Shown here one piece after another: positions 22,804 to 56,905 of a stretch of 64,000 bases of DNA. This stretch comes from Candidatus Zixiibacteriota bacterium. Lineage in GTDB: Bacteria; Zixibacteria; MSB-5A5; SM1-73. The stretch is taken from NCBI GenBank assembly GCA_049694315.1, contig JBAVQU010000021.1:20372-84371 (forward strand), read 5' to 3'. The position numbers and the translations under genes are program-made. Numbering within the stretch: position 1 is the stretch's first letter; the number at the start of each line of letters is the position of its first letter. A model generated the notes under the pieces. It searched no databases. It had not been told where the DNA came from and saw only the letters and a list, made by a program, of their open reading frames with translations.

Positions 22804-22879
22804 ATCGGGGCGAGCCGATTTGAACGGCCGACCCCTTGCACCCCAAGCAAGTGCGCTAACCAGTCTGCGCTACGCCCCG
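22804..22879 (-). tRNA. tRNA-Pro (anticodon GGG)
   Basis: The minus-strand sequence is CGGGGCG TA GCGC AGACTGGTTA GCGC A CTTGC TTGGGGT GCAAG GGGTC GGCCG TTCAAAT CGGCT CGCCCCG A. It folds as a cloverleaf with a 7-bp acceptor stem, a D arm, anticodon loop UUGGGGU and a TPsiC arm; CCA is not encoded. Confidence 0.8.
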
Positions 22880-53761: not shown

Positions 53762-55687
53762 TCACTCTTTGCCCTTATTCCTTACCTCTTCTTTCAGCTT
53801 CTGAATGATCTCATCTAGGCTCAGCCGTCCCAAATCCCCCGCCTTGTGCTTTCTCACCGAAACGTTCTTGTCTTCAACCTCCTTTTTACCCACTATGAAC
53901 ATATACGGTGTTTTTTCCCTTTCTGCCTCTCTTATCTTGTAGCCTATCTTCTCGTTTCTGTCATCCAACTCTACTCTGAAACCTTCGTGCTGCAATCTGC
54001 CGGTCACCTCGGCGGCGTAAGAGTTTTGCTCATCAGTAATCGGCATTACCCGAATTTGCAGAGGAGACAACCACAAGGGAAACGCACCTGCATAATGCTC
54101 GATCAGCACGCCGAAGAATCGTTCCAGAGATCCCAAAAGAGCCCGGTGAATCATGATGGGGCGATGAAAGTTTCCGTCTGCGCCCACGTACCAAAGATCG
54201 AACCTTTCCGGAATGTTGAAATCGAACTGAATGGTGGTGCACTGATGCGGTCTTCCCATAACGTCTTTTATTTTCAGATCGATCTTAGGCCCGTAGAAGG
54301 CGCCGCCGCCTTCGTCTATCTCGTAGCTCAGCTTCTGTTTCTCCAAAGCTTGCCTCAGAGCGCTCGTGGCCTTTTCCCAGTTCTGGGCTTCCCCGATGGC
54401 TTTTTCCGGTCGGGTGGCCAAGAAGATCTGGTATTTGTCAAATCCCAAGGTTTTGAGCATGGAGAGCGAGAAATCCAGAAGCTGGGTGACCTCATCCTCC
54501 AGCTGCTCCAGCTTGCAGAATATGTGGGCATCGTCCATGGTGAAGCCTCTGACCCGCACCAGTCCCTGCAACACTCCGGAACGCTCGTAGCGATAGCAGG
54601 CGCCCAACTCGGCGAACCTGATGGGAAGCTCCCGGTAACTCCTCAGCTTGGACTTGTAGATCAGGATATGAAATGGGCAGTTCATCGGCTTGATTTGATA
54701 CTCCTCGTCCTCCACCTGCATGGTGGAATACATGTTCTCCCGGTAGAACCCGGTGTGCCCGCTTATCTCCCAGAGATGGAGCCGCGCTACGTGCGGGGTG
54801 TACACCAACTGGTAGCCGTGCTTCTGATGCTCCTCCACCCAGAAATCCTCTATGGCTCTTCGAATCAATGCCCCTTTGGGATGCCACAATACTAGGCCCG
54901 GACCGATCTCCTCCGAGATCGAGAAAAGCTCCAGTTCCTTGCCCAGCACCCGATGGTCCCTTTTTTTCATCTCCTCCATTCTCTTCAGGTAATCGTCCAA
55001 CTCCGCCTTGGAGGGGAAAGAGATTCCGTAAATGCGCTGAAGCATCGGATTCTTCTCCGATCCCTTCCAGTAGGCTCCGGCCACGCTCAGCAGCTTGAAG
55101 CCCTTGATCACCCCGGTTGAAGGCACATGCGGACCCCGGCAAAGGTCCACGAAACCGTCATGCTGATACAGGCTCACCTTGTCCTCGGCCAGATCGGATA
55201 GCCTGGCCACCTTGTAACTCTCCCCCTTCTGTTTGAACAACTCCAGTGCCTCTGCTCTGGAGACTTCCCTCCTTACGAAGGGTCGATTCTGCTTTACGAT
55301 CTCCTCCATCCTTTGCTCTATCTTAGCCAGATCTTCAGGCTCGAATGGTTTAGGCGTATCAAAGTCGTAATAGAATCCGTCTTCGATTGAAGGCCCGATG
55401 TCCAGCTTTGCGCCAGGGAATAGGTCTTGCACCGCCTGGGCCATGATGTGTGAGGTGCTGTGCCAGAAGACTTGCTTCCCTTCATTCGACTCGAAAGTGA
55501 CGATCTTCAGATCGGAATCTCCCATCACCTTTTCGGATAGATCAACCATCCGCCCGTTGAGATGAGCCGCCAGGGCACTCTTTGCCAGATCGGGACGGAA
55601 ATCCCGCAGGATATCAAGAACAGTTGCTCCGGTTGGATGCCGCTTTTGCGATCCATCCGGCAGAACCACAGTTATCTGGTTTCCCAT
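53762..55687 (-). CDS. thrS: Threonine--tRNA ligase
   Basis: Has an N-terminal TGS (ITVVLPDGSQK), class II motifs and an anticodon-binding domain, in about 640 aa. Confidence 0.9.
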   Translation of the reverse strand: MGNQITVVLPDGSQKRHPTGATVLDILRDFRPDLAKSALAAHLNGRMVDLSEKVMGDSDLKIVTFESNEGKQVFWHSTSHIMAQAVQDLFPGAKLDIGPSIEDGFYYDFDTPKPFEPEDLAKIEQRMEEIVKQNRPFVRREVSRAEALELFKQKGESYKVARLSDLAEDKVSLYQHDGFVDLCRGPHVPSTGVIKGFKLLSVAGAYWKGSEKNPMLQRIYGISFPSKAELDDYLKRMEEMKKRDHRVLGKELELFSISEEIGPGLVLWHPKGALIRRAIEDFWVEEHQKHGYQLVYTPHVARLHLWEISGHTGFYRENMYSTMQVEDEEYQIKPMNCPFHILIYKSKLRSYRELPIRFAELGACYRYERSGVLQGLVRVRGFTMDDAHIFCKLEQLEDEVTQLLDFSLSMLKTLGFDKYQIFLATRPEKAIGEAQNWEKATSALRQALEKQKLSYEIDEGGGAFYGPKIDLKIKDVMGRPHQCTTIQFDFNIPERFDLWYVGADGNFHRPIMIHRALLGSLERFFGVLIEHYAGAFPLWLSPLQIRVMPITDEQNSYAAEVTGRLQHEGFRVELDDRNEKIGYKIREAEREKTPYMFIVGKKEVEDKNVSVRKHKAGDLGRLSLDEIIQKLKEEVRNKGKE

Positions 55688-55798
55688 CGCTGTCTCCCTG
55701 AAGACCAAGACAAAAAATCACCCCATCTCCCCGGGGCGCTTCTTCGTCTAATCGTGTCTATCAGCCGATCACTTTCAACCGTTCGCCGTCATTTATCA

Positions 55799-55875
55799 TG
55801 GTGGGCGATACTGGAATCGAACCAGTGACCCCTTGCATGTCAAGCAAGTACTCTAACCATCTGAGCTAATCGCCC
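55799..55875 (-). tRNA. tRNA-Val (anticodon GAC), with CCA encoded
   Basis: The minus strand reads GGGCGAT TA GCTC AGATGGTTA GAGT A CTTGC TTGACAT GCAAG GGGTC ACTGG TTCGATT CCAGT ATCGCCC A CCA, a canonical cloverleaf. Confidence 0.85.
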
Positions 55876-55896
55876 ATCAGCCTCATCTTCCCGACC

Positions 55897-55941
55897 CTCC
55901 CGCCAACCGCGGGATACTCTAACCATCTGAGCTAATCGCCC
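55897..55941 (-). pseudogene. Pseudo-tRNA fragment. Its 5' acceptor and D arm are identical to tRNA-Val, it has a GTT-anticodon-like stem-loop, and it has no T arm or 3' acceptor.
   Basis: The minus strand reads GGGCGATTAGCTCAGATGGTTAGAGTA TCCCG CGGTTGG CGGGA GGGTCGGGAAGATGAGG. Its first 27 nt are identical to the adjacent tRNA-Val. Confidence 0.45.
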
Positions 55942-56905
55942 GCGTCGACCAAATCTGACCTACCGCCGGAAGCATCGTTTCTTCTTTGTTCCACACCTCT
56001 AATCGCTAATCTCAACGCTTGGCTCAAATATATTTTGCCAGGATGGGGTTGTCAAGATTTTATTGAAGTGGCGCTGAAAAAGTCGAATCGAGAAGAGCAC
56101 CGCTGCAGTGCCAGGCTTCGGCCTGATCTGCTAAGTCAGCTTATAGAAAAACGCCATTCTGAGAGGCAAGCTGGAGAGTCGCCGAGCAGTAGTGCATTCA
56201 ATTCACCTGACTCTTCGCTTCCTTCAAAATGACACGGGTGGAATCTCTGTATTCTGACAGGATCGTCGATCTGCGCTCCTTGAGGTTATCTTATTCCGAA
56301 CAGATCCATGAGCCTTTCCGCTATCTTCTTGTAAACCTCCTCATTATTGTATTCACCTCTCTGTCTTTTCTTCCTGGCCTCTTTTACTCTATCTTCGCGG
56401 ATGGGATTAGAATCTAACGAAAGATCAGTCTCACCTGTCGTGTCGCCTGTGGAACCTTCATGCACCCTTCGACCTTGACCTCCCGGGGGCACTGCTCCAT
56501 TTGTCCTTCTGTTTGGAGTTTCTCGCCCAGACGCAGAAAGTGAGTTCTTTTCTCTTTCCCGAAATCCTTCTTTTCCACCAGTAGGCAACACTCTCTTCTC
56601 TCCTGTGCAAATGATTGCACAATTGCCTTAGACAAGCAAAACCTAAGCTAACATCATGCGTCACATTACGATCAAACCGTCTCTTGGTCCCGATGGAGGC
56701 ACATTCGACCGGGTCTCATGCGAGCGCACGGTTCGCCGTCAGAAGACGCTAGCCCAATGCCTCTACTATCTGTATCGACCTGGAGGTATTAAACTTTATA
56801 GCCGAAATTCAGGTCAGCGGGTCTTAACCCGACGAAATCCAGAAATGGCATGCTGTCATAGATGACAAAGCCGATTCTCATGCTCATACTCTTGAGCCTG
56901 TGCAC

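Follow-up and report, generated by a model that had tools for sequence, protein, structure and literature searches.

In a 64,000-nucleotide stretch of a Candidatus Zixiibacteriota genome (contig JBAVQU010000021.1, positions 20,372 to 84,371; hereafter the window), the intact gene for tRNA-Val(GAC) is preceded by a truncated copy of itself in which a palindromic hairpin occupies the place of the anticodon arm. Our tentative reading, in which we place somewhat less than even confidence, is that this unit may belong to a recombination-driven, nuclease-associated family of repeats flanking tRNA genes, of which it would be a member lacking an open reading frame (ORF). The parts of the unit and the adjoining gene are listed below. 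All named features of the window lie on the minus strand, and positions within the unit follow tRNA numbering.

55915 to 55941, minus strand: copy of the tRNA 5' part, corresponding to tRNA-Val positions 1-26/27 (acceptor 5' strand, D arm and base 26), 27 of 27 nucleotides identical
55898 to 55914, minus strand: palindromic hairpin (PAL) TCCCGCGGTTGGCGGGA in place of the 17-nt anticodon arm, with a 6-bp stem and a 5-nt loop
55893 to 55897, minus strand: GGGTC, the same as the variable loop (positions 44-48) of the real tRNA-Val; the tRNA homology stops here
55876 to 55892, minus strand: 17-nt spacer that shows no similarity to the tRNA and leads from the unit to the mature 5' end of tRNA-Val
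55799 to 55875, minus strand: intact tRNA-Val(GAC) (ARAGORN; Rfam RF00005, 68.9 bits) with its own anticodon arm CTTGC-TTGACAT-GCAAG

Two occurrences of the 27-nt sequence GGGCGATTAGCTCAGATGGTTAGAGTA were found on the minus strand (55915-55941 and 55849-55875, 66 nt apart). A match of this kind was not obtained in any of 100 shuffles of the window, and the exact copy of the tRNA 5' end described in the initial annotation was in this way confirmed. Absent from that description was the copy of the variable loop after the hairpin, with which the unit comprises tRNA positions 1-26 and 44-48, a foreign arm of 17 nt precisely occupying the anticodon-arm position. The hairpin, TCCCGC-GGTTG-GCGGGA, has a predicted folding energy of -11 kcal/mol (z = -3.0) and a G-G mismatch where a seventh pair would be. 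Its loop region CGGTTGG has a G at position 33 and a C32-G38 pair, unlike a 7-nt anticodon loop with U33 and unpaired positions 32 and 38. Downstream of GGGTC, both the T arm and the 3' acceptor strand (ATCGCCC) are absent, so that the unit is a truncated tRNA-Val copy rather than a tRNA and cannot be charged. In line with this, ARAGORN and Rfam (E<=10) called 55799-55875 as the only tRNA at this locus and nothing at the upstream copy. The earlier view that the latter is no functional tRNA was therefore upheld, and a misfolded complete tRNA was rejected on the same evidence. Structure prediction gives weak pairing of the spacer with the D-arm part of the copy. When all 143 nt are folded together, the predicted minimum-energy structure allows the copied 5' strand to base-pair with the 3' acceptor strand of the intact tRNA, and the unit could disturb folding of the tRNA precursor. 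A candidate second, decayed unit in the leader (GATTAGCGATTAG, 55999-56011) was discarded, as its local alignment was no better than that of shuffled sequences (389/2000).

Units of this kind were grouped in this analysis as a family of PAL units, and the window unit displays the traits that define it. Identity to the tRNA is one-sided, with TAGAGTA...GGGTC kept; a TCCCG...CGGGA palindrome, with an extended stem and 3-5 nt in its loop, stands in for the anticodon arm; and the cut-off side faces the intact tRNA, on the same strand and within the tRNA transcription unit.

Relatives were sampled via threonyl-tRNA synthetase (ThrRS) alone and independently of the unit (n = 11, 65–84% ThrRS identity, including one complete genome, CP070839, the source of L153), and the regions upstream of their thrS genes were compared. 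The promoter motif, tRNA-Val(GAC) and thrS recur in all 11, and each relative has one or more units built in the same way. We distinguish class A, a 5' partial copy upstream of the tRNA as in the window, from class B, a 3' partial copy downstream of it that is composed of D loop, hairpin, variable loop, T arm, 3' acceptor strand and CCA. Six relatives have class A only, four have class B only and one has both:

Class A only: L001 (two units), L148 (two), L153 (one), L154 (one plus one degenerate unit), L160 (two) and L162 (at least one)
Class B only: L151 (one unit), L156 (one), L158 (three) with L159 (two), and L161 (two)
Both classes: L150

The two units of L001, the closest genome relative, stand in tandem with the hairpin TCCCGCCGATGGCGGGA. 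Three further tRNA-Val–thrS loci of Zixibacteria type (L054, L055 and L102) were found by a pattern scan. In the relatives, units are always located on the tRNA strand, between promoter and terminator. A derivation of the class A and class B spacers from duplicated leader or trailer sequence was considered and rejected, since the similarity was not significant in L160 and L161.

The hairpins of the Zixibacteria units always start with TCCCG and end with CGGGA, while inner pairs and length vary (TCCCGAT..ATCGGGA, TCCCGCC..GGCGGGA, TCCCGCT..AGCGGGA and TCCCCCGCC..GGCGGGGGA). In an alignment of 15 distinct Zixibacteria units, 97.1% of the cells were paired. Compensatory double changes were detected at two stem pairs (CG<->AU in six sequences, UA<->CG in four) and both one-sided stem changes result in G-U pairs, values that were reached by 0/500 shuffles. 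Pairs 32-38 and 33-37 are both Watson-Crick in the relatives. The loops comprise 3-5 nt of variable sequence (GGTTG, GAT, TGTC, AGAC and others). The window and L001 agree at 15 of 17 positions of the hairpin, whereas the leader and spacer flanks are unalignable between relatives. The initial annotation had described a stem-loop followed by degeneration without a T arm. The stem-loop and the missing T arm were both recovered; as the hairpin is conserved in relatives with compensatory changes, its interpretation as decay does not hold.

Side, number and hairpin variant of the units differ even between loci with near-identical flanks, which argues for a dynamic family rather than a fossil. L160 has only class A units (two, with a long hairpin) and L161 only class B units (two, with another hairpin), although their flanks are 93-98% identical. 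Similarly, L158 has three units and L159 two (flanks 99-100% identical), and L054 has three units and L055 one (99.5% identical). Hence, units seem to come and go very rapidly, whereas their design is preserved throughout the phylum, and the idea of an ancient inert remnant, for which the same structure would be expected in all relatives, is at odds with these differences. The contigs of L149, L150, L154/L155 and L162 terminate within some hundred bases of thrS on its upstream side, either in the unit arrays or at their edge; such arrays probably break short-read assemblies.

We further scanned metagenomes with the pattern TTAGAGYA-NCCCG-N7-CGGGN-GGGTC, which yielded 98 loci, some of them ordinary tRNAs with a CCCG/CGGG anticodon stem. 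At 73 metagenome loci outside Zixibacteria, the motif is part of a partial or disabled tRNA copy beside an intact tRNA. The neighbouring tRNAs are those for Val (TAC/GAC/CAC), Ile (GAT) and "Met" (CAT, probably Ile2), occasionally Ala or Asn. In a comparison of 110 non-redundant arms, positions 32-38 and 33-37 were both paired, giving a closed 7-bp stem, in 80 of 91 partial copies versus 6 of 19 ARAGORN-intact tRNAs that share the outer stem. The replacement arm comprises 17-21 nt, roughly the length of the native arm, and sits at the arm boundaries of the tRNA. Overall, the loci follow the order class A units (n), intact tRNA, GIY-YIG ORF where present, class B units (n), often in tandem arrays.

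The GIY-YIG ORF of this arrangement encodes about 80-90 aa and was found within 1.2 kb of a unit in 33 of the 73 loci. In 24 of the 28 ORF loci that also hold an intact tRNA, it lies directly 3' of the latter. The ORFs match the Pfam GIY-YIG family with E-values of 1e-10 to 6e-19, and a profile built from twelve ORFs had its best matches in the UPF0213 proteins BH0048 (1zg2, E 6e-12) and EF2693 (1ywl), followed by SLX1, a structure-specific endonuclease. In several lineages the ORF starts within ~10 nt of the tRNA CCA. The stop codon is the TAG inside GGT-TAG-AGC of the class B unit in 7 of 14 ORFs, and as the ORF thus ends inside the unit, the two seem to form one cassette. At L119 (1780-2564 in the oriented copy), the cassette is embedded in an rRNA operon: the 16S gene is separated from tRNA-Ile(GAT) by three class A units, and beyond the tRNA comes the GIY-YIG ORF with a class B unit, itself present as a tandem repeat.

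The core motif had no match in viral contigs, and one representative GIY-YIG ORF had no match at E<=1e-8 by tblastn against plasmid and phage collections; a phage or plasmid origin was rejected on these grounds. Rfam 15 matched only real tRNAs in the window, and in eight related loci only tRNAs and one 16S rRNA. The searchable full-text literature yielded no account of partial tRNA copies with a substituted hairpin, or of small GIY-YIG genes joined to fragments of tRNAs.

Some units of the wider set show additional traits. The triloops of partial copies sit exactly at anticodon positions 34-36 and often hold a Val/Ile-type triplet (TAT 15, TAC 7, GAT 6, AAT 5 and CAT 3); they are frequently one transition away from the anticodon of the neighbouring tRNA, for example GAC to GAT in the units of L001, L054 and L102. 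A second hairpin of the TCCCGA...TCGGGA type within the D loop or T loop of some units (L136 4350-4420, L061 ~1245-1330, L125 7300-7370 and L106 1110-1200, all in oriented copies) indicates that the hairpin itself may be able to insert or duplicate. Several full-length hairpin-substituted copies were called by ARAGORN, namely as tRNA-Stop(tta) (L068 2610-2685), tRNA-Ile(tat) (L104 1276-1348), tRNA-Ile(aat) (L097 594-671), tRNA-Cys(gca) (L082 482-557) and tRNA-Ser(aga) (L060 169-249; oriented copies). Such full-length units could be mistaken for suppressor or rare tRNAs in annotation.

The explanation we prefer would connect these observations as follows. The units may represent the tRNA-like part of a small, selfish genetic cassette, which would spread and would expand or shrink in copy number through homologous recombination with tRNA genes. 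A complete cassette would consist of the 80-90 aa SLX1/YhbQ-like GIY-YIG gene, wedged in directly 3' of the intact tRNA and joined to a class B unit, and the nuclease probably makes recombinogenic breaks, possibly at the extruded palindrome. Both classes could be derived from a circular or tandem module of hairpin-tRNA plus spacer that recombines on either side of the anticodon arm. Judging from its position, the window unit would be transcribed within the tRNA-Val leader and removed when RNase P cuts the real 5' end, while the GC-rich palindrome would zip the anticodon loop shut. It would be non-autonomous, either maintained in trans or a slowly decaying survivor.

A precedent is SegB, one of the free-standing GIY-YIG homing endonucleases encoded in the tRNA clusters of phages T4 and T6, which drives tandem segmental amplification by homologous recombination (PMC13096335, PMC2330249). 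SegB resembles the complete cassettes seen at other loci in that a GIY-YIG gene lies among tRNA genes, and in that breaks and recombination at short tRNA-related homologies lead to tandem amplification with quick expansion and collapse. In contrast, SegB is phage-borne, larger and equipped with DNA-binding modules, whereas the cassette proteins are encoded on bacterial chromosomes and consist of a minimal SLX1/UPF0213-like domain of 80-90 aa; truncated tRNA copies with a palindrome substitution are not described for SegB. Compared with SegB, the window and its relatives have the repeats and lack the nearby nuclease gene. Of the two features of a homing-endonuclease cassette that we looked for, an adjacent GIY-YIG ORF is missing from the window, while copy-number polymorphism among close relatives is present. 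REP elements with their RAYT proteins offer another likeness, as short GC-rich palindromic repeats linked to a nuclease-type gene that is thought to mobilise them; they differ because REPs are extragenic and have no fixed place in a tRNA-like scaffold, and because RAYTs are HUH transposases and not GIY-YIG proteins. Standalone SLX1-like proteins (UPF0213: BH0048 1zg2 and EF2693 1ywl; E. coli YhbQ, B. subtilis YazA) form the family that best matches the unit-linked ORFs, and no reports were located that place these members of housekeeping type 3' of tRNA genes or fused to tRNA fragments.

Several points weigh against a selfish cassette. The 64-kb window and the Zixibacteria loci examined (~150 kb in total) revealed no GIY-YIG ORF, and the link of the window to the nuclease-bearing family consequently runs via homology of the unit and not via the locus itself. 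A nuclease acting in trans is assumed only, and the nuclease activity and target of the GIY-YIG proteins are putative. The sample outside Zixibacteria is biased, as the search pattern fixed the outer stem and both flanks, and the GIY-YIG profile was built from the same loci as the unit sample. Copy numbers were taken from short-read metagenome assemblies, in which repeats may be collapsed. Moreover, neither the exact anticodon-arm boundaries of the replacement nor the recurrence of the same outer stem TCCCG/CGGGA in what appear to be distant phyla is explained by this model. The retention of at least one unit in all relatives despite easy loss, together with the compensatory changes, looks more like selection than drift.

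These last points fit a functional RNA, which we regard as a serious rival, if somewhat less likely than the cassette. The unit could be a closed-loop tRNA mimic made within the tRNA-Val precursor and act as a decoy or an antitoxin-like pseudo-substrate of a tRNA-directed nuclease, or else serve as a processing or stability element of the tRNA-Val–thrS transcript. At loci with a GIY-YIG gene the nuclease could be its product; otherwise it could be encoded at another place or come from an invader, and the core shared by classes A and B would be the 3' strand of the D stem, the hairpin and the variable loop. Consistent with a functional RNA are the persistence of units in all independently sampled relatives despite rapid gain and loss, the compensatory stem changes with G-U pairs as the only one-sided changes, a replacement that keeps the arm boundaries and roughly the arm length while closing 32-38 and 33-37, and the constant location on the tRNA strand between promoter and terminator.

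A role in RNA would also agree with the company kept by related proteins. One methyltransferase family concerned is COG4123, the tRNA1-Val m6A37 methyltransferase TrmN6. Prokaryotic SLX1-like GIY-YIG proteins are reported to occur in fusions or operons with the tRNA methyltransferases COG4123 and TrmH, from which the authors of that study suspected a function in RNA metabolism (PMC1564403). In addition, type III toxin-antitoxin loci of the ToxIN kind come to mind where tandem arrays precede a nuclease gene; these loci share with the cassettes tandem structured repeats of some tens of nucleotides that are co-transcribed with a small nuclease gene. Unlike the units, ToxI repeats are not derived from tRNA, and ToxN is an RNase of a different fold; in the PAL loci, an essential tRNA stands between repeats and ORF, and repeats also occur downstream of the ORF. 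In the window no nuclease gene follows the unit, and the gene after the tRNA is thrS.

Other results speak against an RNA function. Expression of the unit is putative and deduced from its position, and neither class can form an L-shaped tRNA mimic, class A having no T arm and class B no 5' strand. The window hairpin has lost its seventh pair, and no Rfam family matches. GIY-YIG enzymes typically act on DNA. We also sought an RNA-specific signal in the mismatches and rejected it, because in the larger set G-U and A-C mismatches number roughly 4 versus 6 by our own tally, which are small numbers without a bias towards G-U.

A more far-reaching version, which we consider unlikely, holds that the hairpin-substituted copies could constitute a previously undescribed module. 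They would be closed-loop tRNA mimics, serving as RNA decoys or antitoxins, or DNA hairpin targets, paired with a minimal SLX1-like GIY-YIG nuclease directed against Val, Ile and Met-type tRNAs or their genes. This would amount to a new tRNA-linked selfish or defence class, of which the sampled Zixibacteria may have retained the mimic alone at the tRNA-Val–thrS locus because it is needed, for instance as protection or as a processing signal. The units are a variation on two known phenomena, the partial duplication of tRNAs and the free-standing GIY-YIG cassette at a tRNA gene, with a real chance that they are more than that. If the family is what it seems to be, tRNA genes in several phyla would carry a recurrent, structured and fast-changing appendage that is unannotated, and the large family of minimal SLX1/YhbQ-like GIY-YIG proteins would gain a genomic partner and a candidate substrate, either the palindrome or the tRNA.

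Neutral decay of an ordinary tandem partial duplication, with similarity kept by gene conversion and the hairpin produced by quasi-palindrome 'perfection' of the old anticodon arm, appears improbable. Duplicates and copy-number changes are expected at repeats, the complete identity of the 5' half to the adjoining gene is what concerted evolution predicts, and template-switch mutagenesis is known to perfect imperfect palindromes. Yet the stem TCCCG/CGGGA is unrelated to the real anticodon stem CTTGC/GCAAG, and the same stem recurs beside different tRNAs in different phyla, so that the hairpin cannot have been derived locally each time. Nor would decay account for a hairpin that is nearly invariant between the window and L001 where leader and spacer have diverged beyond alignment, or for the association with the GIY-YIG ORF.

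Partial direct repeats of tRNAs are the classic signature of integrase insertion, and the initial annotation had accordingly interpreted the duplication as a scar of phage or genomic island integration or excision; the duplication itself is real, but a scar is very improbable and effectively refuted, since it is the 5' end of the tRNA that is repeated whereas integrase sites duplicate the 3' part, nothing but the 17-nt spacer lies between the repeats, the anticodon arm is replaced and not duplicated, no integrase is present among the neighbours (FlgM-like ORF, peptidase S46 and thrS), the gene order is kept in relatives, none of the 11 relatives has an unduplicated tRNA, and viral contigs lack the motif. 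The attL/attR repeats of phages, integrative and conjugative elements and genomic islands resemble the unit in being a tRNA fragment repeated near the intact gene. They comprise the 3' part and copy it exactly, along with the anticodon region where the repeat extends that far; they enclose an integrase-bearing element of kilobase size and do not occur in element-free relatives. The unit, in contrast, consists of a directly adjoining 5' (or, in class B, 3') part with a swapped anticodon arm, encloses no element and occurs in all relatives. In practical terms, no mobile element has been inserted or lost at this tRNA-Val.

The surroundings of the unit contain the following further features:

56027 to 56055, minus strand: sigma-70-type promoter-like site TTGACA-17-TATATT with 11/12 consensus matches, which would drive leader, unit and tRNA-Val
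55709 to 55738, minus strand: terminator-like hairpin (55738-55719) with T tract, between tRNA-Val and thrS
53762 to 55687, minus strand: thrS, encoding ThrRS (Pfam TGS, tRNA_SAD, tRNA-synt_2b and HGTP_anticodon)
56286 to 56591, minus strand: 101-aa ORF, FlgM-like, with the C-terminus REDRVKEARKKRQRGEYNNEEVYKKIAERLMDLFGI; the FlgM match (E 0.003) is weak and below the Pfam cut-off
56825 to 56887, minus strand: remnant of a DJ-1/PfpI gene, first 21 codons MSMRIGFVIYDSMPFLDFVGL

The promoter-like site lies ~85 nt upstream of the unit, and the same TCTTGACAA...TATATT motif is found upstream of the units in L001, L055, L102, L148, L150, L151, L153 and others. Because the unit lies between this site and the tRNA, it is probably part of the tRNA-Val–thrS transcription unit. 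A similar hairpin, CCCCAAAAG...GGGG plus a T-run, is present just before thrS in L151, L153, L154, L156, L158 and L160-L162 and was not visible in L001, L054 and L102. It may mark the end of the tRNA transcript or be an attenuator for thrS. The possibility that the unit is a ThrRS operator or a T-box-like mimic of tRNA-Thr was rejected, as the loop sequence varies, over 150 nt separate the unit from the start of thrS, and none of the Rfam leader families matched. The ThrRS encoded in the window is 100% identical to a protein of a Candidatus Zixiibacteriota metagenome-assembled genome.

Elsewhere in the window, tRNA-Pro(GGG) (22805-22879, minus strand) was called by ARAGORN and reached 58 bits in a local Rfam scan, while the whole-window gathering scan missed it owing to a filter effect; no partial copies or hairpin units were found beside this gene. 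A 66-aa DUF2283 gene lies between thrS and infC in the relative with 84% identity (L148 4802-5002, L149 2578-2778) and is not present in the window or the other relatives.

Synteny is kept in the relatives, with peptidase S46, FlgM-like ORF, tRNA-Val, thrS and infC. The product of the 101-aa ORF is 40% identical end to end to that of the ORF at the same position in L001 (2968-3264; tblastn E 6e-18), and the position is also occupied in L148, L151 and L153. In L001, the FlgM-like ORF lies ~1.5-2.6 kb downstream of csrA-like and fliW-like ORFs, with the DJ-1/PfpI gene in between. As the latter gene is intact in L001 (2078-2647), L148 and L153, the window carries a deletion here. The region 56035-56905, which had been noted as an unusually non-coding stretch of ~1 kb, is therefore partly coding, with a conserved ORF, and partly a deletion remnant.

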